Part shown: positions 2,047 through 16,805 of the stretch, one piece after another
Position numbering within the stretch: the stretch's first letter is position 1
Layout: each line of letters begins with the position of its first letter
NCBI GenBank assembly: GCA_041651115.1
Contig: JBAZJY010000002.1
Coordinates: forward strand, 286,855 to 350,854
Direction: 5' to 3'
Length of the DNA: 64,000 nucleotides
Origin: Candidatus Omnitrophota bacterium
GTDB taxonomy: Bacteria > Omnitrophota > Gorgyraeia > Gygaellales > Profunditerraquicolaceae
The notes under the pieces: model-generated
Database searches by the model: none
Seen by the model: only the letters and a program-made list of their open reading frames with translations
What the model was told of the DNA's origin: nothing
Position numbers and translations under genes: made by a program

Positions 2047-4272
2047 ATGGAAAAGATCATTATCGGTATCCGGGGCATGCACTGCGCTTCCTGCGCCGTA
2101 AATATTGAAAAGTCTTTACGCGGCAGGGACGGAGTGGCCAGCGTAAACGTAAATTTTGCCTCGGAAAAGGCTTACCTTGAATATGATCCCGGTAAAGTCA
2201 CCCCTCCGGATTTAGAAAAAATAATTGAAAAAACAGGTTATCAGGTTGTTAGGCCCGCTGCGTTGCCGAAAGGGATAGAAGAGGATACCGGCCTTGACCG
2301 GGAACTGGTTTTGCGGCGCAAGGAAATATCGGCTGCCAGGATAAAATTTTTTATTTCATTACTGCTTTCCCTGCCGCTGATGTATTTCGGCATGGGCGGA
2401 AAATTCTCTAATATGGCGCTTGTGCAGTTTGTCCTGGCAACCCCGGTGTTGTTTGTCGGGTATCAATTTTTCACCCGTGGCCTGGCCGCTGTTATTACCG
2501 GGGGCAGCGCGAACATGGATACGTTGATCTCTCTTGGTGTGGGATCGGCTTATCTTTATAGTTTATATTCTTCGGTAATGATCTGGACAGGCAGGCAGCA
2601 CGCTGCCATGGAAGGCCTTTATTATGAGACAGCGGCGTTTCTTATTACCTTTATCCTTTTGGGCCGGCTCCTTGAAGCGATTGCCAAGGGCAAGGCTTCC
2701 GAAGCCATAAGAAAGCTTTTGGGTTTACAGCCGAAAACAGCGGTAGTGGTCAGGGAAGGCAAACAAGTAGAGATCCCCGTTAAAGAAGTCATTACCGGGG
2801 ACATAGTAGTGGTAAGGCCGGGCGAAAGGATCCCTGCCGACGGTATAGTTGTTGAGGGCCATTCCAGCGTTGATGAATCAATGATTACCGGCGAAAGCAT
2901 GCCCGTGGAAAAGACAACAGGCAGTCTGGTAACCGGAGCAACCATTAATAAAGCCGGCGCATTTAAATTCCGGGCAACGCGGGTCGGTAAAGATACGGTC
3001 TTGGCGCAGATCATCCGCTTGGTTGAGCAGGCCCAGGGATCCAAGGCACCTATCCAGCAGCTGGCTGATAAAATTTCCGCTTATTTTGTCCCGGCAGTGC
3101 TTTTGACCGCGATAGCAGCATTTCTCATCTGGCTGCTGTCCGGCGCGGAATTCAGCTTTGCTTTAAATATATTTATCTCAGTATTGATCATTGCCTGCCC
3201 ATGCGCCCTGGGCTTGGCTACTCCTACCGCGGTAATGGTAGCTACTGCCGTAGCTGCAAATAACGGCATCCTGATAAAAAATGCCCGTAGCCTGCAACTT
3301 GCCCATAAAATAAAAACGATCGTCTTTGATAAGACCGGGACTTTAACAAAAGGCAGGCCCGAGTTAACTGATATTGTTTCGGTAGGTAGCCTCAGCAGGC
3401 AGGAGGTATTAAAATATGCCGCCATCGCGGAAAAACGTTCGGAGCATCCCCTGGCAGAGGCGATGGTGGAAGCGGCAAAACAAGAAAATTTGGATATTCC
3501 CGACCCGGAAGCGTTTAATTCCCTTACCGGAAAAGGCGTGATCGCCCGTTTTAACTCGGAGATAATTGTTCTGGGTAACCGGAAATTATTCGTTGATCGG
3601 GGCATTGATATTTCCCGCTGGGAAGATAAACTAAGCGCGTTGGAAACGCAAGGCAAAACCGCGGTCTGCGTAAGTTATAAAAATGAGGTCATCGGGATTA
3701 TAGCCGCTTCGGATACGCTTAAGGAATTTTCCCGTAAGGCAGTAGATGCGCTAAAAAAACCGGGCAGGCAGGTATTGATGATTACCGGAGATAACCGCGT
3801 TACTGCCGCAGCGATTGCCCGCGACCTGGAAATAGACCGGGTCATTGCCGAGGTCCTGCCTCAGGAAAAGGCAGCGGAGATCAGAAAGTTGCGTAAGGCC
3901 GGGTCAATAGTGGCGATGGTCGGCGACGGGATCAACGACGCGCCTGCTTTGGCGCAGGCAGACATCGGTATTGCCGTCGGCGCAGGCACGGATATCGCGC
4001 TTGAATCGGCGGACATCGTGCTGATGAGCGATGACCTGCGTGACGTCTCGGCAGCCATAGACCTGTCGCGTTACGCGATGGAAAAGATCAAACAAAATCT
4101 TTTTTGGGCATTTATTTATAATATTATCGGCATTCCGGTTGCCGCGGGCATACTCTATCCCTTTTTTGGCTTCCTCCTCAACCCGGTGTTAGCCGGCGCG
4201 GCAATGGCATTCAGCTCGGTATCGGTAGTAGCTAATTCTTTGCTGATGCGCAGCTATAAGAAAAATATTTGA
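2047..4272 (+). CDS. copA: Copper-translocating P1B-type ATPase
   Basis: 741 aa; N-terminal HMA domain [15 protein letters not shown]; TM CPC motif ([10 protein letters not shown]); DKTGTLT phosphorylation site; GDGINDAP hinge. Confidence 0.9.
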
Positions 4273-4306
4273 CCGATATTTTTTGGGTGTATAATATAAA
4301 GGAAGA

Positions 4307-4337
4307 GATACCCAACTCAATCGGATGAGTTGGTATC
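4307..4337 (+). promoter_or_regulatory. Hairpin 1 with conserved AUCGGAUG loop (12-bp stem GATACCCAACTCA/TGAGTTGGTATC, 1-nt bulge), at predicted 5' end of transcript from TATAAT at 4290
   Basis: Read directly; loop ATCGGA(TG) identical to hairpins at 14697-14718 and 15970-16000 while stems differ (covariation); SD GGAGGAGGG 25 nt downstream. Confidence 0.45.
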
Positions 4338-4362
4338 CCATTTTCTATGGGAGGAGGGAAAG

Positions 4363-4461
4363 ATGATGACGGGGTTGGCAATAATACTTGCAATAGTAAT
4401 AGTGCTTTTTTTGTGCAGGAAATTTGGCGGCGGCTGCGGATGCTGCGGCGGAAAAAAATGA
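4363..4461 (+). CDS. Candidate 32-aa single-TM peptide ending CRKFGGGCGCCGGKK
   Basis: ATG preceded by GGAGGAGGG at 8 nt; hydrophobic TM stretch TGLAIILAIVIVLFL; stop overlaps next start (ATGA) suggesting translational coupling; shares CGCCG motif with peptide at 16026. Confidence 0.35.
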   Translation: MMTGLAIILAIVIVLFLCRKFGGGCGCCGGKK

Positions 4462-5207
4462 AGACGTTCGCCATTAAGGCCCAGTTGGTTGTTTTCCTTT
4501 CCTTCTTTGCGTTTTACCTCTCTTTTATCGATAAAGATAGCCGGTTCCTGCTTGCCCTGCTTGTTGCCGTGGCTTCAACTGCAGCCATAGACACGGCTTT
4601 TACTCTTCTCAAGCAAAAAAAATTCTCCATAACTTCCAGCTCCCTGATATCGGGCTTGATCATCGGGTTTGTGCTTTCAAGCGACCTGCCTTTATGGACT
4701 ATTGCCCTGGCTTCGCTGATCGCCATTGCCTCCAAGCATCTGATCAATTTTAAAGGCAGGCATGTGTATAACCCGGCAGCGCTGGGGATATTCGCGGTGA
4801 TAATAAGCCTGGACGCTTCCACGCAATGGCGGGGCACTTATTTTTGGCAGGCCCTTGTGCCTGCGGGATTATATTTTTCCTATAAGATCAGGAAGCTGGA
4901 GGTTATCGTCAGTTATTTTGTTGCCGGCTTTGCCTTATTCGGCGCTCAGGCTTTAATGCAGGGAGTAAGCCTGTCAAATGTCTTTGGCTACTTTAGTTAT
5001 TTTTACATATTCATCATGGTCATTGAGCCTAAAACAACGCCGACTAATCTGTTGGGTAAAGTGATCTTTGGCGTAATGCTTGCCGGCTTGATCTTTGTCC
5101 TCACCGGCGCAGCTGTCAGATTTGATGTTGAGCTTGCCAGCCTCTTGGCCATGAACAGCGCGACGCCGTTATTGAACCGGCTGAATATCGCCAAAAAGGG
5201 AGGGTAG
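4458..5207 (+). CDS. Integral membrane protein (about 8 TM), possible copper-associated (CopD-like?) or NqrB/RnfD-like; unassigned
   Basis: 249 aa from ATG at 4458 (the 4347 start in the ORF track is an upstream extension in the same frame through the small-ORF region); strongly hydrophobic; genomic context copA / CopC-like. Confidence 0.5.
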   Translation: MKTFAIKAQLVVFLSFFAFYLSFIDKDSRFLLALLVAVASTAAIDTAFTLLKQKKFSITSSSLISGLIIGFVLSSDLPLWTIALASLIAIASKHLINFKGRHVYNPAALGIFAVIISLDASTQWRGTYFWQALVPAGLYFSYKIRKLEVIVSYFVAGFALFGAQALMQGVSLSNVFGYFSYFYIFIMVIEPKTTPTNLLGKVIFGVMLAGLIFVLTGAAVRFDVELASLLAMNSATPLLNRLNIAKKGG

Positions 5208-5549
5208 GTGAAGAGGGCATTTTTTGTTTTATTGCTTATTTTTAGCGTGTGTGCGCCGGCGTTTGCGCACCCGCCATCTAAGATAATTATTTCTTACGAT
5301 CCTACCGTAGGGGAATTGCAGGCGCTGATTATCCATAATGTCAGTTCACCGGAAAGCCATTATATAAAAAAGATAGATATCGGGCTTAACGGTAAGGAGA
5401 TTGCCGAGCTTGAGTTTTCCCGGCAGGACAACAATGTCACCCAGACTCTCACCTATTTTATCCCGAATGTCAAGCCTGGCGATACCCTTTCAGTCGAGGC
5501 GTATTGCAGCATCAGCGGAAAGCTTGAGAAAGAAATAAAGGTCCAGTAG
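5208..5549 (+). CDS. Exported small beta-rich protein, CopC-like periplasmic copper-binding protein candidate
   Basis: 113 aa; signal peptide ...CAPAFA then mature N-terminus HPPSK (CopC family mature proteins begin His-Pro); context next to copA. Confidence 0.35.
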   Translation: MKRAFFVLLLIFSVCAPAFAHPPSKIIISYDPTVGELQALIIHNVSSPESHYIKKIDIGLNGKEIAELEFSRQDNNVTQTLTYFIPNVKPGDTLSVEAYCSISGKLEKEIKVQ

Positions 5550-5587
5550 CAAACTCCGGCCGTAATTTAAAAAATATTATTTTTCCC

Positions 5588-5617
5588 TTGACAAATGATA
5601 CTATTATGGTATCATTT
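5588..5617 (+). promoter_or_regulatory. Promoter (TTGACA -35 / TATCAT -10) overlapped by 9-7-9 perfect palindrome AAATGATAC-N7-GTATCATTT; candidate Rrf2 operator
   Basis: Read directly; sits 20 nt upstream of the Rrf2 regulator start; Rrf2 (NsrR/IscR) sites are AT-rich palindromes of similar size. Confidence 0.45.
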
Positions 5618-5637
5618 ACCAAGAATGGAGAAGAGCG

Positions 5638-6045
5638 ATGAAACTTATAACCAGGGATACGGATTACGCGGTAAGGGCGCTGGCGTATGTCGCAGCGGCC
5701 AGGCAGGACGTAGTTTCTGTAACGGAGTTGGTAAAAAAATTAAAGATCCCGCGGCCTTTCCTGCGCAAGATCCTCCAGACACTCAATAAAAAAGGGATCC
5801 TTGAATCGGCTAAGGGCTTTGGCGGCGGGTTCCGCCTGGCGGTTAAACCCGGGGATGTTTACTTGCTTAAGCTGATGGAAATTTTTCAGGGAAAATTCAG
5901 GCTTAATGAATGCCTTTTAAAAAATAAGTTTTGCCCGAATATTTCCCGCTGTCCGCTGCGCAAGAAAATAAACAACATCGAGCGTTATGTTATATCGGAA
6001 TTAAAAGGCGTTACTCTGGCTTCTTTAAATAAGAGGGGTGGATGA
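5638..6045 (+). CDS. Rrf2-family transcriptional regulator (NsrR/IscR-like, Cys-containing)
   Basis: 135 aa; N-terminal wHTH pattern DYAVRALAYVA...SVTELVKKL; C-terminal cysteines CLLKNKFCPNISRC consistent with Fe-S-binding Rrf2. Confidence 0.8.
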   Translation: MKLITRDTDYAVRALAYVAAARQDVVSVTELVKKLKIPRPFLRKILQTLNKKGILESAKGFGGGFRLAVKPGDVYLLKLMEIFQGKFRLNECLLKNKFCPNISRCPLRKKINNIERYVISELKGVTLASLNKRGG

Positions 6046-6275
6046 TGTTTTCTGGTTGTCCCGGGCAGGATAAACGGAATATTAAGGTTGAGTCAATCGC
6101 TTGTACGGCGTGCGGCTACGCAGTGGAGATATTTTCTGATGAGGCGAGGCAGAAATGCCCGAAATGCGGAAATTGGGCTAACCGCCAGAAGCTTGCCTCT
6201 TGCGCCTTGTGGTGCAAATCCGCCCGGGAGTGTATCGGTGAAGAGCGGTGGGAACAATTAATCAGGGGAGGTTGA
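6042..6275 (+). CDS. Small Cys-rich zinc-ribbon-like protein
   Basis: 77 aa, 8 Cys including CTACG...CPKCG ribbon pairs; overlaps rrf2 stop, immediately precedes hcp. Confidence 0.45.
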   Translation: MMFSGCPGQDKRNIKVESIACTACGYAVEIFSDEARQKCPKCGNWANRQKLASCALWCKSARECIGEERWEQLIRGG

Positions 6276-6278
6276 AAA

Positions 6279-7571
6279 ATGTTCTGCTATCAATGTGAAC
6301 AGACAGCAGGCGGTACCGGATGCCTAAAAACCGGAGTGTGCGGCAAGAATGAAGATATTCAAAGCCTGCAGGATATATTATTATTCGGCTTAAAGGGCAT
6401 TGCCGCGTATGCCTTTCACGCGCAGGAATTGGGCGCCAGAGATGCAGAAGTTGATGCGTTCATGCACGAAGCATTGTTTAAGACCATAACTAACGTCAGT
6501 TTTGACATCAATCAGTATGTCGGCATGGTCTTAAAATGCGGCGAGATGAACTTAAGGGTAATGGAACTTCTGGATAAGGCACATACGCAGAAGTTCGGGA
6601 ATCCCGTGCCTACGGCAGTGCCTACGGGTACGCGCAAAGGGCCGGGGATCCTTATAACCGGCCATGATCTGCTTGACCTTTATGAATTATTAAAACAAAC
6701 CGAAGGTACCGGGATAAACGTTTATACCCACAGTGAGATGCTTCCGGCGCACGGTTATCCGGAACTTAAGAAATTCAAGCATCTGGCAGGAAACTACGGT
6801 GGCGCATGGCAGGAACAAAAGAAGGAATTTAATGAATTTAGCGGCGCGATCCTGGTTACCACTAACTGCGTGCTTATCCCGCCGCAAAATTCCTACCTTG
6901 ACCGGCTGTTTACCGTAGGTATTGCAGGCGTAGAATGCGCAGCACATATAAAAAACAGAGATTTCTCTGCCGTGATTGCAAAGGCAAAGTCCTTGCCGCC
7001 CCTGCCGGAAGCCCCCGGGAAAACCATTATGACCGGTTTTCACCATACGGCGATCCTCGGCCTGGCCGATAAGATCATTGCCGCGGTAAAAGCCGGAAAG
7101 ATCAGGCGTTTCTTCTTGATCGGCGGCTGCGACGGAGCAAAACCGGGGCGTAATTATTATACGCAGCTTGCGGAAATTGTGCCCAAGGATTGCGTGATCC
7201 TGACGCTTGCCTGCGGGAAATACCGTTTCAATAAGCTTGATTTCGGCGAGATCGACGGTATCCCGCGCTTGATTGACATTGGCCAGTGCAATAATGCCTA
7301 TTCGGCAATACAGGTGGCGGCTGCTTTGGCAAAGGCATTTAACTGCAGCGTTAATGAGCTGCCGTTATCGATCGTGCTTTCGTGGTTTGAGCAGAAGGCA
7401 GTGGCAATACTATTGACCCTATTATATCTTGGCATTAAAGGCATGCGTGTCGGCCCGACGCCCCCGGCGTTCATTTCCGCGAACGTGTTCAAGCTGCTTC
7501 AGGAAAAATTCGACCTGAAGTTGATCGCTACTCCGGAAAAGGACCTGGCGGATATGCTGCAGGCAAAATAA
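6279..7571 (+). CDS. hcp: Hybrid-cluster protein (hydroxylamine reductase), short class-III type
   Basis: 430 aa; N-terminal cubane-cluster motif MFCYQCEQTAGGTGC...GVCGK; hybrid-cluster region ligands; length matches the short Hcp class. Confidence 0.85.
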   Translation: MFCYQCEQTAGGTGCLKTGVCGKNEDIQSLQDILLFGLKGIAAYAFHAQELGARDAEVDAFMHEALFKTITNVSFDINQYVGMVLKCGEMNLRVMELLDKAHTQKFGNPVPTAVPTGTRKGPGILITGHDLLDLYELLKQTEGTGINVYTHSEMLPAHGYPELKKFKHLAGNYGGAWQEQKKEFNEFSGAILVTTNCVLIPPQNSYLDRLFTVGIAGVECAAHIKNRDFSAVIAKAKSLPPLPEAPGKTIMTGFHHTAILGLADKIIAAVKAGKIRRFFLIGGCDGAKPGRNYYTQLAEIVPKDCVILTLACGKYRFNKLDFGEIDGIPRLIDIGQCNNAYSAIQVAAALAKAFNCSVNELPLSIVLSWFEQKAVAILLTLLYLGIKGMRVGPTPPAFISANVFKLLQEKFDLKLIATPEKDLADMLQAK

Positions 7572-7654
7572 AAAACGTTTGTTAACACTAAAATAAGAAG
7601 ATATAATAGAGACAGTATTCATCCTGCCTGATATCTTCTGCCTGTGAGTATATA

Positions 7655-8368
7655 ATGGTGAAAGAAATAAGAGCGCGTTTTATAGAAAAAATACCCCGGA
7701 CCGGCTCGGTAGAGAGCTTCCGATTTACGCCGGCTGAAAGCCCCGGCTTTTTACCGGGGCAGGCAGCGCAGCTTATCTTTGACGAAAATAACCGGAATAA
7801 CCGGGAGTTGAATAAATACCTTTCTTTTTCTTCTTCGCCGGAGAGGGCTTATGTAGAGTTTACTAAAAGAATAAGCTCAAGCGCTTTTTCAAAGCAGCTG
7901 GAAAATTTAAAATCCGGCGATGAGGTTTTGCTGAAAGCGCCGGTAGGCAATTGCGTATTCAGGGATGATTACGCAAAGATCGGGTTTTTGATCGGTGGCA
8001 TCGGCATTACTCCGGTTATTTCCATAATTGAGCATATCATGGACAAAAAACTTACTACCGACGCGTTGCTCCTTTATTCTAACCGCACTGATGACGACAT
8101 TGCCTTTAAAGAAGAACTGGACCGCTGGCAGGCGCTCAATAAGAATATTAAGGTAAGCTATATCGTTACAGATTGTCAGCCAAAGGATAATACTTGCATA
8201 CGCGGCGTGATAGATAAAGAGATGGTAAGCGAGAAGGTCTATGAGCTTAACAAAAGGATATTTTTTCTCTTTGGGCCTCCGGGAATGGTCGCGGCGATGA
8301 ACAACCTGTGTTTGGATTTGGGTTGCAGCGGAGAAAATATTAAGGCGGAGAATTTTGTAGGGTACTAA
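7655..8368 (+). CDS. FNR-like FAD/NAD(P)H oxidoreductase (possible Hcp reductase partner)
   Basis: 237 aa; ferredoxin-reductase-type FAD-binding (RxYS-like) and NAD-binding GGIGITP motif; follows hcp. Confidence 0.65.
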   Translation: MVKEIRARFIEKIPRTGSVESFRFTPAESPGFLPGQAAQLIFDENNRNNRELNKYLSFSSSPERAYVEFTKRISSSAFSKQLENLKSGDEVLLKAPVGNCVFRDDYAKIGFLIGGIGITPVISIIEHIMDKKLTTDALLLYSNRTDDDIAFKEELDRWQALNKNIKVSYIVTDCQPKDNTCIRGVIDKEMVSEKVYELNKRIFFLFGPPGMVAAMNNLCLDLGCSGENIKAENFVGY

Positions 8369-8388
8369 TATTAAAATGGAGGTGGAAA

Positions 8389-8784
8389 ATGGCAGGGATG
8401 AAAGAATTATTTCAGGCAGCTGATTGGAAAGCGGAAAAGCACGTACCGGTGATTGAGGCGGCGGATAAGGTAAAAAAAGGCGCATGGGTCGGGATAACCG
8501 TCAGTATCGGCAAAGAGATTCCCCATCCTAATACTACGGAGCATCATATTGCCTGGGCTGCGGTTTATTTTCTAGCTGCGGGTGAAAAGTTCTCTTACGA
8601 AATAGCTAAATTTGAATTTAACGCTCACGGCTCTTCAGTGCAGGGCCCCAACACCAGCACGATCTTTACTCATGCCCAAGGCACCTGTAATTTTAAGACG
8701 GATAAGCCCGGCACGATCATTGCCGCTTCTTATTGCAATATCCACGGCTTATGGGAAAATTTCAAAGAATTGAGTGTAGAATAA
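8389..8784 (+). CDS. Superoxide reductase (neelaredoxin / 1Fe-SOR)
   Basis: 131 aa; EKHVPVI motif, His ligands HH...H and C-NIHGLW (CxxHGxW) typical of desulfoferrodoxin/neelaredoxin centre II. Confidence 0.8.
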   Translation: MAGMKELFQAADWKAEKHVPVIEAADKVKKGAWVGITVSIGKEIPHPNTTEHHIAWAAVYFLAAGEKFSYEIAKFEFNAHGSSVQGPNTSTIFTHAQGTCNFKTDKPGTIIAASYCNIHGLWENFKELSVE

Positions 8785-9663
8785 ATGACTGAGCTGGATC
8801 CGCAGTTAAGGGACAGGATACTTAAGATACAGCAAAACGAGATCACCGAATACTTGATCTATAAAACGCTTGCTGCGATCGCCGGCTTAAAGCAGGATAA
8901 AAATAAAGCCGTGCTTGAGGCGATCTCCAACGATGAACTGTCCCATTATAACTTCTGGAAGAATTTTACGCAGGCGGAGGTAGCGCCGCAGCGGCTTAAG
9001 GTGAATTTTTACCTGTTCCTTGCCAGGACGCTTGGCTTAAGTTTCAGCCTTAAATTGATGGAGTCCGGCGAAGAAAACGCGCAATTAGTTTATGGAAAGC
9101 TTGCCTCGCTCGACCCGCAGGTAGTAAAAGTGATGCAGGATGAAGAACGTCATGAGCAGGAAGTCTTGGCGCTCATTGACGAAGAGCGGCTTAAGTATAC
9201 CGGTTCGATCATCCTCGGCCTTAACGACGCGCTGGTTGAATTGACCGGAGCGCTTTCCGGATTTACCCTAGCTTTGCAGAAAACAAAATTGATTGCCGTA
9301 GTCGGCCTGATTACCGGCATTGCCGCGGCGCTTTCTATGGCAGGTTCGGAATACCTCTCAACTAAAGAAGAGGGGTCAAAGAGCCCGGTTAAAGCGTGCG
9401 TATATACGGGAATAGCCTATATTTTTACCGTTATATTACTGATTCTACCCTTTTTTATCTTTCAGAGCCCTTTTGTCGCATTGGGATTGACAGTGTTTTT
9501 TGTTGCCTGCGTGATCTTTATTTTTACTTTTTACGTATCGGTTGCCAAGGGTCTTAATTTTAAGACGCGTTTTTTTGAGATGCTGGGGATTGCCCTTGGC
9601 GTTGCTATATTGAATTTCTTTATTGGATTGGCAGTAAAAAAATACCTGCATATTGACGCATAA
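8785..9663 (+). CDS. VIT1/CCC1-family iron/manganese transporter with N-terminal ferritin-like domain
   Basis: 292 aa; N-terminal rubrerythrin/ferritin-like helices (ELSHYNFW, EERHEQE); C-terminal membrane domain with GLNDALVELTGALSG signature of the VIT family. Confidence 0.6.
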   Translation: MTELDPQLRDRILKIQQNEITEYLIYKTLAAIAGLKQDKNKAVLEAISNDELSHYNFWKNFTQAEVAPQRLKVNFYLFLARTLGLSFSLKLMESGEENAQLVYGKLASLDPQVVKVMQDEERHEQEVLALIDEERLKYTGSIILGLNDALVELTGALSGFTLALQKTKLIAVVGLITGIAAALSMAGSEYLSTKEEGSKSPVKACVYTGIAYIFTVILLILPFFIFQSPFVALGLTVFFVACVIFIFTFYVSVAKGLNFKTRFFEMLGIALGVAILNFFIGLAVKKYLHIDA

Positions 9664-10517
9664 TGGAAAGAAAGATAACTTTCAAAGCCGGCCCGCTCAC
9701 GCTCGTAGGAAGGAACTTAAAAGTCGGCAACATCGCGCCCGAATTTAACGTAGTTTCCCAGGACCTGGCTGCTGTGCGGCTTTCCGATCTGGGGGCAAAG
9801 ATTAAAGTAATTTCTTCTTTTCCTTCGCTGGATACGCCCGTATGCGACCTGCAGGTAAAGGAATTCAATAAAAGGGCAGCCGGTTTTTCCGATGAAGTGG
9901 TCGTGATCGGGATAAGCAAAGACCTGCCCTTTGCCCAGAAAAGATTTTGCCAGGAAAACAGCATAAAAAACGAGACCGTTCTTTCCGACTATAAATCTTC
10001 TTCTTTTGCCATAAACTACGGCCTGCTCATAAAAGAGCTCAATCTTTTAGCAAGGTCGGTTTTAATCATCGACAAAAACAATATTCTGCGCTATTTTAAG
10101 ATCGTGGGAGAACTGACCAGCCCTCCGGATTACAGCGATGCGCTTAAAAACCTTGAGGAAGTCATAAAAATTCCGCTGCAGGCAGCTTCGAGGCCGGCTT
10201 TACCTGCGCGCTGTAAACCTTGCGAAATCGGCACTCCGCCGCTTTCCGAAGAAAAGATAGAGAAGCTGATTGCCGGATGCCCAGGGTGGGAATTAGTTGA
10301 AGGGAAAAAGATAACCCGGGAACTCAAATTCAAGGATTTCGCGGAGGCAAAATATTTTCTGGACATTGTTGCGCTGATCGCCGAAGAACAGGGGCATCAT
10401 CCGGCGTTGGCTATAATTTATAATAAGCTCAAAATCACGCTGACGACTCATGCATCCGGGGGGCTTACGGAAAACGATTTTATTATGGCCGGGATGATCA
10501 ATGAGCTGGAGGGATAA
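9663..10517 (+). CDS. Fusion protein: thiol peroxidase (Tpx, atypical 2-Cys peroxiredoxin) + pterin-4a-carbinolamine dehydratase (PCD/DCoH)-like domain
   Basis: 284 aa; residues 1-165 align to Tpx (FPSLDTPVC peroxidatic Cys, DLPFAQKRFC resolving Cys, EPDY); residues about 200-284 align to PCD (GWELVEGKKITRELKFKDF...EEQGHHP...TTHASGGLTENDF); linker with CKPC. Confidence 0.75.
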   Translation: MERKITFKAGPLTLVGRNLKVGNIAPEFNVVSQDLAAVRLSDLGAKIKVISSFPSLDTPVCDLQVKEFNKRAAGFSDEVVVIGISKDLPFAQKRFCQENSIKNETVLSDYKSSSFAINYGLLIKELNLLARSVLIIDKNNILRYFKIVGELTSPPDYSDALKNLEEVIKIPLQAASRPALPARCKPCEIGTPPLSEEKIEKLIAGCPGWELVEGKKITRELKFKDFAEAKYFLDIVALIAEEQGHHPALAIIYNKLKITLTTHASGGLTENDFIMAGMINELEG

Positions 10518-10519
10518 AT

Positions 10520-11026
10520 ATGAAGAAAGTGGCTGTTTTAGTTGAAGATCATTATCAGGTCCTGGAAGTATGGTATCCCTATCTACGGCTGCGCGAAGAA
10601 GGCATAGAAACCGTCCTTATCGGTACGGGAAAAAAACAATACTCAAGTAAAGAAGGTTATCCTGCTGAAGCAGAGTTGTCCATAAGGGATGCCAATGTTA
10701 CTGATTTTTCCGGCGTGATCATTCCCGGAGGGTATGCCCCTGACATATTAAGGCGGCATAAGGAAATAAACGATTTTGTGAAAGCAATGGATAAGGCAAA
10801 TAAGCTGGTTGCCGCGATCTGCCATGCGGGATGGGTACTGGTATCTGCTGGCGTGTTAAAGGGCCGCAAGGCAACTTGTTTTTCCGCGATAAAAGACGAT
10901 GTGATAAATGCCGGAGCTGAATATAGCGACAAGGAAGTTGTCGTAGACCGTAACCTTATTACGTCACGTAATCCTTATGACCTGCCGGCTTTTTGCCGGG
11001 AGATCATCAGGTATTTAAAGGGTTAA
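10520..11026 (+). CDS. DJ-1/PfpI family protein (class I glutamine amidotransferase-like)
   Basis: 168 aa; nucleophile elbow AAICHAGWVL, PGGYAP motif. Confidence 0.8.
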   Translation: MKKVAVLVEDHYQVLEVWYPYLRLREEGIETVLIGTGKKQYSSKEGYPAEAELSIRDANVTDFSGVIIPGGYAPDILRRHKEINDFVKAMDKANKLVAAICHAGWVLVSAGVLKGRKATCFSAIKDDVINAGAEYSDKEVVVDRNLITSRNPYDLPAFCREIIRYLKG

Positions 11027-11033
11027 ATCGGTT

Positions 11034-11921
11034 ATGAGTTTAGAACATTATCATTTGCATCATCGGTTGAATAAGCTTTCCCGTTTACGGCTGGCGCTAT
11101 TTTTGACCGGTTCAGGCATGGTCATTGAATTTGCCGGAGGCCTGCTTTCTAATAGCCTTGCCTTAGTTTCCGATGCCTGGCACATGGTAACGCATTTGTT
11201 TGCCCTGGGCATGAGTTATTTTGCCATCGTCCTTGCCTTAAGGCCGGTTACCAAACAGCATACTTACGGTTTATACCGGGCGGAGATCCTCGCGGCATTC
11301 ATTAACGGCATAGTCTTGATCTTTATTTCCGGGTATCTGGTATATGAAGCGGTAATGCGCTTTATCCATCCCGAAGAAGTAAAGATATTAGAAATGTTTT
11401 TAGTGGCGGTCATTGGCCTTATTATCAACGGCGCGAGTATTTATCTTCTTTCGCGCTCCGGTTCACATGACCTGAATATACGCAGCGCCATACTTCATGA
11501 AATAGGCGACCTTATATCAAGTGTTGCCGTAGTCGTCGGCGCCTTGTTTATTTTTTATACCCGAAATTACCTCATTGACGCGCTATTGACGTTCTTTATT
11601 GCCATCCTGATCGTTATCTGGTCAATAAAGCTGCTGGTTGATTCGGCGCATATCTTGCTTGAGGCTGCACCTAAGCATCTTGATATTGACTTGCTAGTCA
11701 CTCTGCTCAAGGATGAAATTCCCGGGATACATGAGGTGCATCATGTGCATGCCTGGACTATTGCTACGTCAATGTACGCGCTTACTGCGCACGTGGTGAT
11801 TGACGACTGTCATGTGAGTAAAGCCAACGATATTCTAATTAAGGTAAACGACCTGCTCAAAAAGAAATTTAATATTGAACATACAAATATTCAGTTTGAA
11901 TGTTTGATTAAAAAGGCATAA
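11034..11921 (+). CDS. Cation diffusion facilitator (CDF) family metal exporter (CzcD-like)
   Basis: 295 aa; His-rich N-terminus, 6 TM, HxxxD-type sites (SDAWHMVTH, HEIGD), C-terminal cytoplasmic domain. Confidence 0.8.
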   Translation: MSLEHYHLHHRLNKLSRLRLALFLTGSGMVIEFAGGLLSNSLALVSDAWHMVTHLFALGMSYFAIVLALRPVTKQHTYGLYRAEILAAFINGIVLIFISGYLVYEAVMRFIHPEEVKILEMFLVAVIGLIINGASIYLLSRSGSHDLNIRSAILHEIGDLISSVAVVVGALFIFYTRNYLIDALLTFFIAILIVIWSIKLLVDSAHILLEAAPKHLDIDLLVTLLKDEIPGIHEVHHVHAWTIATSMYALTAHVVIDDCHVSKANDILIKVNDLLKKKFNIEHTNIQFECLIKKA

Positions 11922-11946
11922 CGCCTAATCCGATAGGAGGATAAAA

Positions 11947-12138
11947 ATGAAAGCAGTAGTTAATCCAGAAATATGCATCGGCTGTACGCTTTGCGTAGGC
12001 ACATGCGCGGAAGTATTCCGGATGGAAGGGGACAAGGCAGTTGCCAACCGCGATCCGGTGCCGCCGAATTTATATGATTGCTGCAGAAGGGCTGCGGAAG
12101 AATGCCCGGTAGCGGCAATAGAGATTACCGAGGATTAA
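11947..12138 (+). CDS. Small [4Fe-4S] ferredoxin
   Basis: 63 aa; CIGCTLCVGTC...CP motif; precedes korAB. Confidence 0.75.
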   Translation: MKAVVNPEICIGCTLCVGTCAEVFRMEGDKAVANRDPVPPNLYDCCRRAAEECPVAAIEITED

Positions 12139-12154
12139 CAGGAGGCAGGAAAGG

Positions 12155-13828
12155 ATGAACGATGTTTCTATCCTTATCGGCGGTAAAGCCGGCTTTGGCA
12201 TAGATGCCGCCAGCCTGATTATCGGCGCCATACTAAATAAGCTGGGCTATCGCATCTATATCTACCGCGAGTATCCATCTCTTATCCGGGGCGGCCATAC
12301 GTTTTCCATTATCCGCGGCTGCCGGGAAAAGGTCTATACCCACCGCAATAAAATTGATTTTCTTCTTGCCTTAAATCAGGACACGTTCAACTTTCATAAG
12401 GATAAATTAAGAGACAACGGGGTTGTGGTTTATGACTCTGATGTGGTGAACATCGGCGATCTGCAGCCCGGTATGCAGGTTCTGGCTATTCCGGCTTCAA
12501 AAGTAGCCAAAGAAGAGAATGCCGCCGAAATTATGCGTAATACCTGTTTGATCGGAGCATTTTGTAAGGCTGCGGGCATAGGCTGGCCTATCCTGGAACA
12601 AGTATTTAAGAAGCGCATACCCAGAGAAACCGAGCAGAATTTAAAGGTTGCCTCGGTTGCTTATAACGAGGCGCATGAATTAGTAAAAATCCCCGGCTTG
12701 GATCAACCGGCATTGCCTATTATTACCGGCAACGAAGCTATTGGTTTAGGGTTAGTTGCAGCCGGCCTGAATGCTTACATTGCTTATCCTATGACCCCGT
12801 CTTCTGCTATCCTGCATTTTTTAGCCGGCATTACCGATAAAATCCCCTTAAAAGTCATCCATCCGGAGAGCGAGATCGCCGTAATGCTTATGGCATTAGG
12901 TGCTGCTTATGCCGGAGATAAGGTTGCTGTCGGCACTTCAGGCGGCGGATTCTGCCTGATGACCGAAGGCCTCAGCCTTAGCGCAATGGCAGAGCTTCCG
13001 GTCACGATTGTCTTGGGACAGAGAACCGGGCCAAGTACCGGCCTTCCGACTTATACCGGCCAGACAGAGCTACAATTTGCTTTAAGCGCCGGCCACGGCG
13101 AATTCAGTCGCTTTGTGGTTGCTCCCGGAGACGCCGAAGAAGCGTATTTCTGGTCGGCAGCCGCGTTAAACATGTCTTCCAAATATCAGATCCCGTCCAT
13201 TATTTTATCGGATAAGACCCTTGCCGAAGGCACGTATAGTTTTGATATTGCATCAGCCGGCGAAGTCAGCGCAGAGAAATTCCTTTTATGGGATAGGCAG
13301 GGGCAATATAAAAGATATCTGGATGCAGAAAACGGCGTATCTGGCCTGGCTTTTCCTTCGGATAAGGACGCGGTAGTAAAAATAAACAGCTACGAGCATG
13401 ACGAATACGGGATTACCACCGAAGACCCGGCAATCACCGTTAAAATGCAGGAAAAACGGCTGTGTAAAGGCGAATGCCTTAGCCAAGAATTAGAGAATTA
13501 TAAAACCGTGAACGTATACGGCAATGCTAAATCTAAAACAGCAGTACTTTGCTGGGGATCAAATAAGGGCGTTTGTATTGAAGCGGCAGAGAGCCTCGGA
13601 TTAAAAGTCATCCAGCCTGTGGTATTGTGGCCGTTTTCCGTTGGACAGTTCAAGCTCGCCCTAAAAGGCGTTAAACAGCTGATCTGCGTAGAAAACAGCG
13701 CTACTGGCCAGTTACCGGCTTTACTTAACAGTTTTGGCATTAAGACGGATAAAATGATCTTAAAATACGACGGTAGGCCGTTTGAATTGGCCGAGCTTGA
13801 AGCAAAGATTAAAGAGGCAATAAAATGA
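12155..13828 (+). CDS. korA: 2-oxoacid:ferredoxin oxidoreductase, fused gamma-alpha subunit
   Basis: 557 aa; N-terminal gamma-like domain plus alpha core (GNEAIGLG, YPMTPSS motifs). Confidence 0.8.
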   Translation: MNDVSILIGGKAGFGIDAASLIIGAILNKLGYRIYIYREYPSLIRGGHTFSIIRGCREKVYTHRNKIDFLLALNQDTFNFHKDKLRDNGVVVYDSDVVNIGDLQPGMQVLAIPASKVAKEENAAEIMRNTCLIGAFCKAAGIGWPILEQVFKKRIPRETEQNLKVASVAYNEAHELVKIPGLDQPALPIITGNEAIGLGLVAAGLNAYIAYPMTPSSAILHFLAGITDKIPLKVIHPESEIAVMLMALGAAYAGDKVAVGTSGGGFCLMTEGLSLSAMAELPVTIVLGQRTGPSTGLPTYTGQTELQFALSAGHGEFSRFVVAPGDAEEAYFWSAAALNMSSKYQIPSIILSDKTLAEGTYSFDIASAGEVSAEKFLLWDRQGQYKRYLDAENGVSGLAFPSDKDAVVKINSYEHDEYGITTEDPAITVKMQEKRLCKGECLSQELENYKTVNVYGNAKSKTAVLCWGSNKGVCIEAAESLGLKVIQPVVLWPFSVGQFKLALKGVKQLICVENSATGQLPALLNSFGIKTDKMILKYDGRPFELAELEAKIKEAIK

Positions 13829-14676
13829 GTGATAAGAATTTAAATACTTACGCCGTCAACACATGGTGCCCGGGTTGCGGCAACTTTTCCATACTTAACG
13901 CGATCAAGTCCGTACTTTTGTCTTTGGCGCAGGAAGGGCTTGGCCTGGAAAACGTAGTTTTGGTGTCCGGCATAGGATGCCACGCAAAGATCGTGGATTA
14001 CATAGACGTAAACAGTTTTTATTCCATACACGGCAGGGCAACCCCGGCTGCCAGCGCGATAAAGATCAGCCGTCCGGGATTAAAAGTGATCGCTTTTGCC
14101 GGAGACGGAGACGCTTACGGCGAGGGTTTAGAACATTTAATATTTGCCGCAAAGCGTAATGTTGATATCACGATGATCATCCATAATAACCGTGTTTACG
14201 GGCTGACCACCGGCCAATACACACCTACCTCGCCGTTGGGTTTTAAAGGAAAGTCCACTCCGATGGGGACAAAAGAATCGCCGATAAATCCGCTTGAGTT
14301 GATGCTTTCCTGTGGCGCAGGCTTTATCAGCCGCGGCACGTCCCACGGTATAGAGCTGCTCAAAAAAATCTTTAAAGAAGCGATACTTCATAAGGGGTTT
14401 TCCATCGTAGACGTGCTACAGGTTTGCGTAACGTATTATAATATGTATGAATATTACGATAAGCGCGTTTATGAGCTTACCGGCCATAATCCGCAGGATT
14501 ACAAGCTGGCTATGGATAAAATACGCGAGTGGGATTATAATAAAGACGCTCCTATTGGTTTGGGGGTTTTTTACAAAAAAGAGTCAGCTGTATTCGAAGA
14601 AGGTTTTCCCAGGGCAGCTACAGCGGACACGGAGAGGCCGGAAAAAATAAAGCAAATCCTGGCGGGTAGGCTTTAG
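13825..14676 (+). CDS. korB: 2-oxoacid:ferredoxin oxidoreductase, beta (TPP-binding) subunit
   Basis: 283 aa; CPGCG N-terminal Cys cluster, TPP motif GDGDAYGEG...NN; start overlaps korA stop. Confidence 0.85.
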   Translation: MSDKNLNTYAVNTWCPGCGNFSILNAIKSVLLSLAQEGLGLENVVLVSGIGCHAKIVDYIDVNSFYSIHGRATPAASAIKISRPGLKVIAFAGDGDAYGEGLEHLIFAAKRNVDITMIIHNNRVYGLTTGQYTPTSPLGFKGKSTPMGTKESPINPLELMLSCGAGFISRGTSHGIELLKKIFKEAILHKGFSIVDVLQVCVTYYNMYEYYDKRVYELTGHNPQDYKLAMDKIREWDYNKDAPIGLGVFYKKESAVFEEGFPRAATADTERPEKIKQILAGRL

Positions 14677-14751
14677 CACCCGAACCTAAAATGCACCTTG
14701 CCCTATCGGATGGGCAAGTGTCCCGCCTACTGCGGGAATGGTTCGGTGTGC
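14676..14751 (+). promoter_or_regulatory. Composite hairpin element 2: outer stem GCACCCGAACC/GGTTCGGTGTGC enclosing hairpin CTTGCCC-TATCGGAT-GGGCAAG and hairpin CCCGC-CTACT-GCGGG; begins at korB stop codon
   Basis: Read directly; same outer stem sequence and same ATCGGATG loop as element at 15970-16000; followed by small hairpin and SD AAGAGG before fprA ATG. Confidence 0.45.
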
Positions 14752-14775
14752 ACTTGCTGTGCAAAGAGGCACATT

Positions 14776-15963
14776 ATGGCACGTATAGAGATCAAAAAAA
14801 ATATATTCTGGGTAGGCGCAGTTGACTGGAACATCAAGAATTTTCACGGCCATACCTATACGACAACAAGGGGTACGACTTATAACGCTTATTTGGTTAT
14901 TGATGATAAGATCGCCCTGGTAGATACTGTTTACGGCCCGTTCAGCGCAGAGCTCATTGAGAGAATAAGGCAGGTTATTGACCCGGCAAAGATAGATTAT
15001 ATTATAGCAAACCACGTAGAGACTGATCATTCAGGCGCTATGCCGGAGATCATGAAGCTCTGCCCCAAGGCAAAAGTTTTAGGCACAGCTAAATGCAAAG
15101 AAGGCCTATACAGAAATTATTACGGCAATTGGGATTTTCAAGTCGTAAAAACCGGGGATAAGCTGGAATTAGGCAAGAGGACCTTGTCTTTTATTGAAGC
15201 GCCGATGATCCATTGGCCGGATAGCATGTTTACTTATTGTCCTGAAGAGAAGCTTTTAATGCCCAATGATGCTTTTGGCCAGCACTATGCAACGGCAGAA
15301 AGATTTGATGATGAGGTAAGTGATTGCGAACTGATGGATGAGGCGGAAAAATATTACGCTAATATCCTCTGGCCGCTAAGCGCGATCATTGGCAAAAAAC
15401 TTGAAGAAATAATCAGTATGAATATTCCTATTGATATGATCGCGCCCAGCCACGGCATAATCTGGCGCAAGGACCCAAAAAAGATCATCAATGCGTATTC
15501 CTCGTGGGTAAAGAATACAACCCAGCCCAAAGCAGTCGTGCTTTATGAAACCATGTGGCGCTCCACGGAAATAATGGCGCGTAGAATCGCAGATGGCATT
15601 ATTGATTCCGGGATAATGGCAAAGGTTATTGATATAACGCAGGCTGACCGTACGGAAACGATCAAGGCATTATTCCAGGCAAAAGGTTATGTTATAGGCT
15701 CGTCCACCCACGATAACGACATGTTGCCGAATTTAGCAGGGTTCCTCGAGTTTCTTAAAGGGCTTAAGCCTCAAAATCGGCTTGCTGCGGCATTTGGTTC
15801 GTATGGTTGGGCAGGGGGTGCCGTAAAAAATATTGAGTCGGTATTGGGCGCTTCAGGGATCAAGATCGTCCAGCCGGGGCTGGGTATTCAATACGTCCCG
15901 GATCAGGCCGGCCTGCAACAATGTTATGATTTCGGGAAGAGTTTTGCGGAAAACGTGAAATAG
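14776..15963 (+). CDS. fprA: Flavodiiron protein (rubredoxin:oxygen/NO oxidoreductase)
   Basis: 395 aa from ATG 14776 (the ORF-track start at 14698 would translate through the structured element; rejected); metallo-beta-lactamase-like diiron domain (HVETDHSG) + C-terminal flavodoxin domain. Confidence 0.85.
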   Translation: MARIEIKKNIFWVGAVDWNIKNFHGHTYTTTRGTTYNAYLVIDDKIALVDTVYGPFSAELIERIRQVIDPAKIDYIIANHVETDHSGAMPEIMKLCPKAKVLGTAKCKEGLYRNYYGNWDFQVVKTGDKLELGKRTLSFIEAPMIHWPDSMFTYCPEEKLLMPNDAFGQHYATAERFDDEVSDCELMDEAEKYYANILWPLSAIIGKKLEEIISMNIPIDMIAPSHGIIWRKDPKKIINAYSSWVKNTTQPKAVVLYETMWRSTEIMARRIADGIIDSGIMAKVIDITQADRTETIKALFQAKGYVIGSSTHDNDMLPNLAGFLEFLKGLKPQNRLAAAFGSYGWAGGAVKNIESVLGASGIKIVQPGLGIQYVPDQAGLQQCYDFGKSFAENVK

Positions 15964-15969
15964 CAAGTA

Positions 15970-16000
15970 GCACCCGAACCTATCGGATGGTTCGGTGTGC
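15970..16000 (+). promoter_or_regulatory. Hairpin 3: GCACCCGAACC-TATCGGAT-GGTTCGGTGTGC, directly after fprA stop, followed by GCGC hairpin and SD AAGGAGG
   Basis: Read directly; loop identical to hairpins 1 and 2. Confidence 0.45.
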
Positions 16001-16025
16001 GCTTAACTGCGCAAAGGAGGACGAT

Positions 16026-16091
16026 ATGGGTTGCGGATGTTGCGGAGCAGCAAAGAAGAAGCCGAAAAAGAAAGCAAAGAAGAGAAAATAA
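16026..16091 (+). CDS. Candidate 21-aa peptide MGCGCCGAAKKKPKKKAKKRK (Cys-rich N-terminus, polybasic tail)
   Basis: ATG 5 nt after perfect SD AAGGAGG; shares CGCCG motif and nucleotide string TGCGGATG(C/T)TGCGG with the 4363 peptide; not in supplied ORF track (<60 aa). Confidence 0.35.
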   Translation: MGCGCCGAAKKKPKKKAKKRK

Positions 16092-16331: not shown

Positions 16332-16805
16332 ATGAAAAGAATCCCAGAAGACATCGTGCATTTTTTTCGGGAACAAGGGTTTGTCATTGTTTCTACGTTA
16401 GATGACCGGGGCCGGCCTCATAATTCCTGTAAAGGGATAATAAATATCTCGCCGTCCGGGAAAGTTTACCTGCTGGATGTTTACCTGAAAAATACTTATA
16501 GTAACCTTAAACGTAACTCAAATGTCAGTATTACCGCTGTTGACGAGCATAAATTCAAAGGCTACTGCCTTAAGGGCAAGGCTAACATTATTAATCGCGA
16601 GCAGATCAATCCGCAGATAAGAAAAGAATGGGATGGTCGCATTGCCGGCAGGATCACGCAGCGGCTGATCAAAAATATCCGCGAACAAAAAGGGCATCCG
16701 AAGCACCCGGAAGCGCTCCTGCCGCATCCGGAATATATGATCGTGATGGAAGTCAGCGAGATCGTTGACCTGACTCCCCATAATTTAAAAGGAGAGGTCC
16801 AGTAA
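16332..16805 (+). CDS. Pyridoxamine 5'-phosphate oxidase-like FMN-binding split-barrel protein (flavin reductase-like)
   Basis: 157 aa from ATG 16332 (track start 16311 is a TTG overlapping rubredoxin); split-barrel pattern; oxidative-stress operon context. Confidence 0.5.
   Translation: MKRIPEDIVHFFREQGFVIVSTLDDRGRPHNSCKGIINISPSGKVYLLDVYLKNTYSNLKRNSNVSITAVDEHKFKGYCLKGKANIINREQINPQIRKEWDGRIAGRITQRLIKNIREQKGHPKHPEALLPHPEYMIVMEVSEIVDLTPHNLKGEVQ

Follow-up and report, generated by a model that had tools for sequence, protein, structure and literature searches.

The stretch of DNA analysed here (the window) comprises 64,000 nucleotides of a Candidatus Omnitrophota bacterium (contig JBAZJY010000002.1, positions 286,855 to 350,854) and contains an oxygen- and metal-related gene island. 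The island codes for a CopA-type ATPase, Rrf2 regulators, a hybrid-cluster protein, a superoxide reductase, a peroxiredoxin, a CDF transporter, a 2-oxoacid:ferredoxin oxidoreductase, FprA, rubredoxin, rubrerythrin, glutaredoxin and TrxB. Embedded in it are three intergenic sites that carry four copies of a repeat unit of ~48 nt made of two hairpins, P1 and P2, and this unit is the subject of our analysis. Sites 1 and 3 precede tiny cysteine-rich open reading frames (ORFs), and site 2 precedes fprA. Relatives of the window FprA in GTDB genomes, none more than 73 per cent identical to it, come almost all from Candidatus Omnitrophota metagenome-assembled genomes (MAGs). Co-orientation of genes is extreme: 65 of the 68 window ORFs of at least 70 amino acids lie on the + strand, and 86 per cent of adjacent ORF pairs overall share their direction. 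The GC skew of the gene strand is +0.07 to +0.14 along the window (+0.10 overall); it is ~0 at third codon positions and consequently uninformative as a pointer to the replication strand.

The original prediction, made from the letters of the window, had described three hairpins with covarying stems and a conserved loop just upstream of Shine–Dalgarno (SD) sequences, and all three are present. P1, 31–34 nt long, consists of a lower stem RCAC/GUGY, one bulged C, a freely covarying upper stem of 6–7 bp and a loop with the core A-U-N-G-G-W. The stems had been taken as perfectly complementary; this does not hold, as each P1 has a single bulged C on its 5′ side. The hexamer ATCGGA is conserved as claimed, whereas the trailing ‘UG’ belongs to the stem pairing and is not conserved in relatives, and the flanking U…U/A/G is the closing position. 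P2, which had been missed at every site, is a hairpin of 4–6 bp following the GUG-Y of P1; its loop is of the NNGU or UUCU type, and at each site it runs up to the SD. The copies are listed below, with scores (in bits) of two covariance models, R1 and R2, which are described after the list.

4307..4337, + strand: P1 of site 1 (R1 39.1; site 1 is itself in the seed alignment); lower stem GAUAC 4307–4311 with GUAUC 4333–4337, bulged C 4312; upper stem CAACUCA 4313–4319 with UGAGUUG 4326–4332; hexaloop AUCGGA 4320–4325.
4338..4350, + strand: P2 of site 1, CCAU-UUUCU-AUGG, running into the SD GGAGGAGGG (4350–4358); start codon of the peptide at 4363.
14677..14763, + strand: outer unit of site 2, split by the nested copy.
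Same unit, 5′ half: CAC 14677–14679, bulged C 14680, CGAACC 14681–14686, 5′ part of the loop UAAAAU(G).
Same unit, 3′ half: rest of the loop AAU 14737–14739, GGUUCG 14740–14745, GUG 14746–14748.
14749..14763, + strand: P2 of the outer unit, UGCAC-UUGCU-GUGCA, followed by the SD AAGAGG 14764–14769 and the fprA AUG at 14776.
14694..14736, + strand: inner complete unit of site 2 (R1 41.5; R2 15.9).
Same unit, P1: CAC 14694–14696, bulged C 14697, UUGCCCU 14698–14704, hexaloop AUCGGA 14705–14710, UGGGCAA 14711–14717, GUG 14718–14720.
Same unit, P2: CCCGC-CUACU-GCGGG 14722–14736.
15969..16012, + strand: unit of site 3 (R1 40.7; R2 16.6).
Same unit, P1: CAC 15971–15973, bulged C 15974, CGAACCU 15975–15981, hexaloop AUCGGA 15982–15987, UGGUUCG 15988–15994, GUG 15995–15997.
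Same unit, P2: GCGC-UUAACU-GCGC 15999–16012, followed by the SD AAGGAGG 16014–16020 and the AUG of a 21-amino-acid peptide at 16026.

Site 2 had been likened to site 3 with two extra hairpins inserted. Its outer arms are indeed identical to the stem arms of site 3, but the additional hairpins are the P1 and P2 of a complete second unit. At both sites the CAC of the lower stem is preceded by A-G.

The 8-mer ATCGGATG alone is not significantly enriched in the window (four found, 2.1 expected), and the predicted fold is clearly better than that of shuffled sequences only for the nested site 2 (z = −4.7, compared with −1.7 at site 1 and −2.0 at site 3). Copies in relatives were found with a regular expression and then with covariance model R1. 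In the seed alignment, the sequences of which had been chosen for pairing, double compensatory changes occur at each of the ten P1 pairs. A pairing-blind test relied on the sequence anchors ACC-N7-ANNGGA-N7-GT only and covered 1.28 Mb, with five control loops: at least six of the seven positions were paired in 9 of 14 matches, as against 0 of 24 for the control loops. Among the matches listed from a metagenome scan, the upper stem is fully paired in 107 of 126, the chance estimate being ~3 per cent. Model R2 was built from 97 metagenome copies only, all with an 11-nt loop (class B). In the 64-kb window it ranks site 3 first and the inner site 2 hairpin second, with marginal scores (rough E ~0.1), and does not recover site 1, which has a UAC/GUA foot; this variant of the lower stem recurs in four related loci (L034, L062, L068 and L199). 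The structure, unlike the 8-mer alone, thus places the window hairpins far beyond chance.

Further copies, which the original prediction had proposed to look for and whose absence it would have taken as a refutation, are numerous beyond the window. Other Omnitrophota loci carry the P1 hairpin with unrelated stem sequences and with hexaloop variants such as AUAGGA, AUUGGA, AAAGGA and AAUGGA. The window copies have a hexaloop, whereas in the commoner class, with its 6-bp upper stem, the loop is 11 nt long, U(A)AUNGG(A/U)AUU. The metagenome scan, performed with one degenerate pattern for the 11-nt-loop class and not anchored on any gene, yielded at least 126 matches on at least 120 contigs. The density of units reaches five per 11–15 kb. 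In the matches listed, a few families of upper stems differ from each other by compensatory pairs (CCGCGC, CGGCGC, CGACGC, CAACGC, UGGCGC). Window-like hexaloop copies and 11-nt-loop copies coexist on the same contigs. At least 23 of the 120 listed contigs show 65–86 per cent nucleotide similarity to labelled Omnitrophota loci, one of them (L121) being syntenic over ~10 kb. The family is abundant, with many dispersed copies in Candidatus Omnitrophota genomes, and its stems covary. Rfam 15 gave no match at the window sites, either at the gathering threshold or at E ≤ 10, and in seven unit-rich related loci it matched only an unrelated thiamine pyrophosphate (TPP) riboswitch. No such element is described in the full-text literature that we searched, among it a survey of complete Omnitrophota genomes from 2026 and one of REP sequences across phyla from 2025.

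Copies are found almost only in short transcribed spacers, and a unit frequently occupies the entire spacer from stop codon to SD. Its start is often 0–20 nt past the upstream stop codon or just past a promoter, and it reaches as far as the next SD or the 5′ end of a tRNA. In the window, the claim that elements 2 and 3 start exactly at the preceding stop codon is borne out at site 2 (TAG 14674–14676) but not at site 3, which begins 6–7 nt past the FprA stop codon (15961–15963). The largest group of cases has the next start codon ~18–32 nt beyond the 3′ GUG, and the distance from the bulged C to the start codon is 48–54 nt in most single sense copies; sites 1 and 3, with 51 and 52 nt, resemble them. 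When stems of 4 bp or more are counted, 98 of 105 copies have a P2, compared with 47 for shuffled sequences; most of these hairpins have 6 bp and an NNGU tetraloop. In 49 copies an SD core is located near P2, and in 45 of these it starts −1 to +2 nt from the end of P2. The borders of the unit are sharp: information begins at R-CAC-C and fades 16–18 nt after GUG, and neither flank is conserved. Upstream of position −2 the flank has no information content, and no conserved target sequence is seen. Some leaders depart from this arrangement. On the − strand of the stored locus L157, upstream of a Pgk-like gene, the P2 GUGUCUGUACAC is followed by AAA-AUG with no recognisable SD; in the orthologous leaders of L128 and L155 (CUCC-UUGU-GGAGG) the SD itself forms the 3′ strand of P2.

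Orientation is strongly biased. Among the class-B matches listed, 58 copies in co-directional spacers are sense and 4 antisense; a more permissive scan of all loci, some hits of which are due to chance, gives 88 sense and 10 antisense, i.e. about 90 per cent co-oriented. Antisense copies keep P1 and P2 and have no SD. They nearly always lie beside a sense copy, forming a convergent pair in the same spacer. Copies opposite to both neighbouring genes occur in the hcp leader of L073, the nifU-like leader of L052 and the thi4 leaders of L014 and L021. In L014 and L021 the reversed unit lies between a TPP riboswitch terminator and the SD of thi4, and L021 has an extra nested reversed copy upstream of the riboswitch. 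The TPP riboswitches upstream of thi4 were identified with Rfam in L008 (4810–4920, 67 bits) and by eye, with terminator hairpins, in L014 (~16440–16560) and L021 (~14950–15090).

Genes downstream of the listed matches are diverse; among them are genes whose products have N-termini resembling EF-Tu, ribosomal protein L16, DnaK, Pgk, ArgH or NifU. Units also occur inside tRNA operons in the orientation of the tRNAs, between tRNA-Tyr and tRNA-Gly in L186 and between tRNA-Leu and tRNA-Gly in L103 and L110, and further units precede tRNA-Gly, tRNA-Lys and tRNA-Pro in other loci. The coherent set of oxygen, NO and metal stress targets suggested by the original prediction therefore does not survive a scan that is not anchored on genes. 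The impression of a stress regulon arose because a stress island and FprA-centred loci had been sampled; in the latter the unit precedes fprA, rubredoxin, superoxide reductase, hcp, nifU-like, Rrf2 and Cys-rich peptide genes. This stress-like set would fit a riboswitch-like regulator of an oxygen/NO/metal regulon, in which P1 would sense the signal and P2 would expose or hide the SD, and the 5′ half of P2, which is rich in pyrimidines, has the SD as an alternative pairing partner in some copies. However, the downstream genes lose their coherence once sampling is not FprA-centred, the element is too small and its loop too variable for a ligand pocket, tandem, nested and antisense copies do not suit such a regulator, and Rfam has no match to it. 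We find this possibility scarcely credible.

The presence of the unit at a given junction is also patchy. Among FprA orthologues it is found in only ~8 of 75 leaders, and in most of the others the upstream stop codon overlaps the SD (UAUUAGGAGG). An empty site of this kind can be compared with the filled site UAUUAG[CACC…GGCA]AGGAGG.

The original prediction favoured repression of the CsrA/RsmA type, in which a CsrA dimer would bridge the GGA of the P1 loop and the GGA of the SD and so block ribosome binding. At all three window sites a GGA in a hairpin loop does lie 25–55 nt upstream of a GGA-containing SD, a spacing within the bridging range of the dimer. The CsrA consensus is A(N)GGA, with GGA at positions 3–5 of an ANGGAN hexaloop. 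In the window loop, A-U-C-G-G-A, the GGA occupies positions 4–6 and a U stands two positions before it; only the rare variants AAAGGA and AAUGGA fit the consensus. Nor is GGA invariant, the base after GG being A in only 84 of the 126 listed copies (U in 34, C in 7, G in 1). The fixed scaffold of bulged C and RCAC/GUGY lower stem is foreign to CsrA sites, and the model leaves it unexplained together with the constant geometry and P2. Copies also occur before tRNA genes and in antisense, although a GGA-containing SD follows most sense copies. No csrA was detected by tblastn with the E. coli and B. subtilis proteins, and no hfq was found, in 2.0 Mb of loci, a sample too small to exclude one gene per genome and hence weak evidence. 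Taken together, these data make a CsrA site very unlikely.

A double-stranded DNA operator, at which a dimeric factor such as the neighbouring Rrf2 would read the inverted repeat GACAC…GUGUC, deserves consideration in view of the conserved sequence of the lower stem and of units that precede Rrf2 genes themselves in L008 and L033. Here the original prediction reasoned correctly that a conserved loop on covarying stems points to a constraint on structure: the centre of the palindrome keeps its complementarity, not its sequence. In addition, the conserved arms are 3 nt further apart in one loop class than in the other, and the element is strand-biased and asymmetric, with its bulged C, non-palindromic loop and one-sided P2. 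The Rrf2 gene of the window has a different perfect palindrome over its promoter (5593–5617). We give an operator next to no credence.

Several types of rearrangement suggest that the unit has multiplied. Exact tandem duplicates of a 47–48-nt unit (P1 and P2 without the SD) are present in L086 and L172, and truncated 3′ halves occur. A complete unit lies within the loop of another in 17 cases, site 2 of the window included, and in 17 of 17 the two have the same orientation. The point at which the outer copy is split is constant: its 5′ part ends …NG, the insert runs from G-CAC-C to the end of P2, and the remainder is (A)AUU. Near-identical copies are found within one genome, as with site 3 and the outer arms of site 2; in L008 the copy at 7298 equals that at 11586, and the copy at 5894 closely resembles that at 11211. 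One homologous composite leader precedes a nifU-like gene in L052 and hcp in L073. This combination of tandem, antisense-paired, truncated and nested copies fits dispersed repeats (REP/BIME, ERIC, BOX, MIRU and IS200-derived elements) and not riboswitches or operators.

Composite leaders before different genes were also noted in L062 (12960–13110), L068 (8350–8530), L113, L119, L127 and L194. In them, a full unit is joined by a P2 of the CGCUAGGUAGCG type and by an orphan 3′ half (AUU-GCGCGG-GUG), with another P2 and the SD after it; most are explained as nested copies. The orphan 3′ half could pair with the 5′ arm of the neighbouring unit, so that mutually exclusive folds are possible.

The explanation that we consider probable is that the unit belongs to a strand-specific, non-autonomous family of ~48-nt two-hairpin repeats of Omnitrophota, which multiply by insertion or duplication, are co-transcribed with their neighbours and, if they affect expression at all, do so generically. 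The unit would insert into transcribed spacers and into its own loop, and a trans-acting factor would recognise its hairpin, loop and bulged C while the nucleic acid is single-stranded; the closest precedent for such a factor is a HUH/RAYT-like enzyme acting on the lagging-strand template. These compact, co-oriented genomes would tolerate an insertion only if it fell in the interval from a stop codon to the next SD, which would explain why copies abut both. A tight fit is to be expected of any insertion that has to spare the coding sequence and the SD–AUG spacing in spacers that were originally 0–15 nt long. Once inserted, the unit would be co-transcribed and fold into two stable hairpins beside the SD. 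Any effect on expression would then be generic, for example protection of the 5′ end or insulation of the ribosome-binding site, without a response to oxygen, metals or CsrA.

Some observations weigh against this explanation. No target-site duplication was seen at the flanks or at nested junctions; a 2-nt AG duplication at the FprA junction of L043 is possible but ambiguous. No transposase or other mobilising gene was identified in the 2.0 Mb of loci, and no IS200/RAYT gene outside a single Zixibacteria locus, the sample being again too small to exclude one per genome. Only 23 of the 120 listed metagenome loci are tied to labelled Omnitrophota by nucleotide similarity. The sense bias and the precise fit to the SD would also suit a selected RNA function, and at one orthologous site, the nifU-like leaders of L052, L062, L111 and L121, the stems show compensatory changes. 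Given that 65 of 68 window ORFs and 86 per cent of ORF pairs are co-oriented, an orientation set by the genes and one set by replication would look alike. In the stems, G·U is more frequent than A·C (86 versus 27), which is significant overall, but the excess is confined to the two outermost positions of the lower stem and does not appear in the upper stem. We discount it as evidence of RNA selection because the 3′ partners of these outer positions can alternatively start P2, and selection at the level of RNA or of single-stranded DNA accounts equally well for the G·U/A·C data.

The Zixibacteria locus (L078) contains a RAYT-like ORF at 11404–11877 (23 per cent identity to E. coli YafM, E 8e-5). 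It lies between two hairpins (~11379 and ~12038) that share the loop TCAGGGGA, the classical REP–RAYT layout, and is unrelated to the Omnitrophota unit.

Alternatively, the unit could be a genome-wide RNA module maintained by selection, with the P1 loop and bulged C bound by a dedicated RNA-binding protein or endoribonuclease. Such a factor would process polycistronic transcripts, tRNA operons included, at unit boundaries, or protect 5′ ends and set up translation of the downstream cistron, and the growth in copy number would be secondary. A conserved loop, bulge and lower stem combined with a free upper stem of fixed length are typical of hairpins recognised by proteins. The sense orientation of about 90 per cent of copies, the ending of P2 at the SD or at position +1 of a tRNA, and the 48–54 nt that separate the bulged C from the AUG in most single sense copies agree with this possibility, as do the location of some copies at transcript 5′ ends and the preservation of units with compensatory changes in nifU-like leaders on several contigs. 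On the other hand, the unit is present in only ~8 of 75 FprA leaders, and about 10 per cent of copies are antisense yet keep P1 and P2 without an SD. Self-nested, tandem and truncated copies suggest proliferation rather than design, insertion into such tiny spacers can itself account for the tight spacing, and no candidate protein was found. We regard a selected module as possible but unlikely.

It is tempting to speculate that the unit is the visible part of an undescribed system specific to Omnitrophota, and we put forward two versions of this idea tentatively. The unit could be a loop-targeting miniature mobile element, for which its own loop (…NGG^AAUU) is both the recognition signal and the preferred insertion site and which some enzyme mobilises strand-specifically. 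Instead, it could serve as RNA ‘punctuation’ throughout the phylum: a dedicated nuclease or binding protein would read the bulged C and the loop and, at the borders between cistrons, cut or protect polycistronic mRNAs and tRNA precursors. Both versions would account for the constant scaffold and the strand bias of about 90 per cent, and likewise for the precise placement at the SD or tRNA +1 and the shared orientation of the self-nestings (17 of 17).

Other candidate readings were tried and rejected. For a kissing interaction of a sense copy with its reversed neighbour, the two loops match in L052 and L008a and not in L073 and L008b, and such complementarity is expected of any reverse complement of the same loop. 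Pairing between the P1 and P2 loops is not accompanied by covariation. Mimicry of the tRNA-Pro anticodon loop (U-NGG-R) was dropped, since position ‘37’ is U in 27 per cent of the listed copies, and analogies with T-loops and with the T-box UGGN fail because the first base is variable or not U. The unit is not an intrinsic terminator: no + strand terminator was called at any of the three sites, and P2 is followed by A-rich sequence and the SD with no U tract. As for a selenocysteine insertion (SECIS) or read-through signal, site 2 and site 3 both follow a UAG stop, and the proteins appear to be complete. Neither anatomy nor context suits CRISPR. Integron attC sites have R″/R′ core sites RYYYAAC…GTTRRRY, are at least ~57 nt long and lie in cassette arrays; the unit has an RCAC/GUGY foot and a P1 of 31–34 nt and resides in conserved housekeeping and tRNA operons.

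A promoter reading was rejected too, as the promoters of the window are of the canonical sigma-70 type and lie upstream of the unit, not within it. One candidate precedes site 1:

4269..4297, + strand: sigma-70-like promoter TTGACC-N17-TAATAT, a consensus match only (9 of 12 positions).

Judged by this match, P1 of site 1 would lie at most ~10 nt from the 5′ end of the transcript. Comparable promoter-proximal copies occur in L140, L151, L193 and L196, and some copies lie 5–20 nt downstream of good sigma-70-type promoters, that of site 1 being weaker. A stronger sigma-70-like promoter (TTGACA-N16-TATCAT, 11 of 12 matches) lies just upstream of the Rrf2 gene at 5638 and is overlapped by the perfect palindrome AAATGATAC-TATTATG-GTATCATTT (5593–5617; region 5588–5617). 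The palindrome is likely to be an autoregulatory Rrf2 operator unrelated to the hairpin repeat.

The tiny Cys-rich ORFs, at 4363–4461 and 16026–16091 in the window and at 11265–11324 in L008, have strong SDs and share a G-C-G-C-C-G motif at the DNA level (TGCGGATG(C/T)TGCGG). The site 1 peptide (MMTGLAIILAIVIVLFLCRKFGGGCGCCGGKK, 32 amino acids) has a transmembrane helix, and its ORF overlaps by ATGA the start of an RnfD-like membrane protein gene at 4458. The site 3 peptide, MGCGCCGAAKKKPKKKAKKRK (21 amino acids), is encoded between fprA and rubredoxin, and its orthologue MSCGSCGPKKPKKKAKKKK occupies the same position in L008. These peptides have no match in Pfam or NCBIfam, and neither database confirmed a resemblance of the site 1 peptide to ‘FeoB-associated Cys-rich’ proteins. 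A small desulforedoxin-like protein in L019 (11312–11485; PF06397, E 6e-5) ends in a long Lys-rich tail (…KPKSKVKAKAKPGKKAKKR), and similar basic tails end the ORFs directly upstream of fprA in other Omnitrophota loci (L002, L005 and L010).

The phylum Omnitrophota is uncultured and consists of ultra-small bacteria that may be predators or depend on hosts. Scans of their MAGs for structured 5′ untranslated regions will meet the unit repeatedly, and it should then not be annotated as a gene-specific regulator, a CsrA site or a riboswitch candidate. The unit is also a compact sequence marker for Omnitrophota contigs, and related genomes vary in the junctions that carry it. What these genomes harbour is an abundant, strand-specific, self-nesting hairpin element lodged between stop codons and ribosome-binding sites and also in tRNA operons. 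If it is selected, it would mark a general layer of transcript processing or translation set-up.

Compared with known RNA signals, the unit recalls the iron-responsive element (IRE) bound by iron regulatory protein (IRP) and the operators of the PP7 and MS2 coat proteins in that a free stem carries a sequence-specific hexaloop and, a fixed distance beneath it, a bulged nucleotide. The loops differ, however (CAGUGN in the IRE, AUAUGG in PP7), as does the distance from bulge to loop, which is 7 bp in the unit and 5 or 4 bp in these hairpins; moreover, the copy number is far above that of any operator, and there is no overlapping terminator. ANTAR targets consist of two adjacent hairpins, each with a hexaloop containing A1 and G4, the second of which overlaps a terminator or SD. 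The P1 hexaloop shares A1 and G4, but the P2 loop has 4–5 nt (NNGU/UUCU) and is not a second hexaloop, the commoner P1 loop has 11 nt, and terminators are absent.

Among mobile and dispersed repeats, miniature inverted-repeat transposable elements are set apart by their ends, since those of the unit (R-CAC-C… and the 3′ end of P2) are not mutual inverted repeats. Mycobacterial interspersed repetitive units (MIRUs) and ERIC, BOX and Correia elements are likewise repeats of 40–150 bp inside operons, co-oriented and co-transcribed, with size variants due to internal insertion, and they can alter the expression of neighbouring genes. MIRUs, however, are direct repeats carrying small coupled ORFs rather than hairpins, and Correia, ERIC and BOX elements are longer, with terminal inverted repeats or modular boxes; none of them has the two-hairpin anatomy or such a position in tRNA spacers. 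Miniature elements derived from IS200/IS605 (PATEs), the subterminal hairpins of which are recognised by TnpA, are similarly strand-specific and leave no target-site duplication. In them, too, an extrahelical base and the loop of imperfect hairpins are the determinants of recognition, and orientation is tied to the lagging-strand template. They differ in having distinct left and right ends and in inserting 3′ of a fixed tetra- or pentanucleotide, whereas the 5′ flank of the unit is unconserved and the unit is only ~48 nt long.

The proteobacterial REP/BIME sequences are mobilised by RAYT, a nuclease resembling HUH Y1 transposases. Like the unit, they are short (20–40 nt), imperfect palindromes with a bulge or mismatch, present in many extragenic and co-transcribed copies that are single, in tandem or in inverted pairs; they form sequence families within a genome, and the hairpin is recognised as single-stranded nucleic acid. 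The unit lacks their conserved 5′ GTAG head, its 5′ foot being R-CAC-C, and conserves the loop on a free stem where REPs conserve the stem. It has a second hairpin and lies mainly 5′ of the next SD or tRNA, whereas REPs lie in 3′ untranslated regions. It also shows a strong single-strand bias and stereotyped insertion into its own loop, with no RAYT gene found for it in the 2.0 Mb of loci. Among small dispersed structured repeats the unit is unusual in its conserved loop and free stem, its second hairpin, its position 5′ of SDs and tRNAs, its strand bias and its oriented self-insertion.

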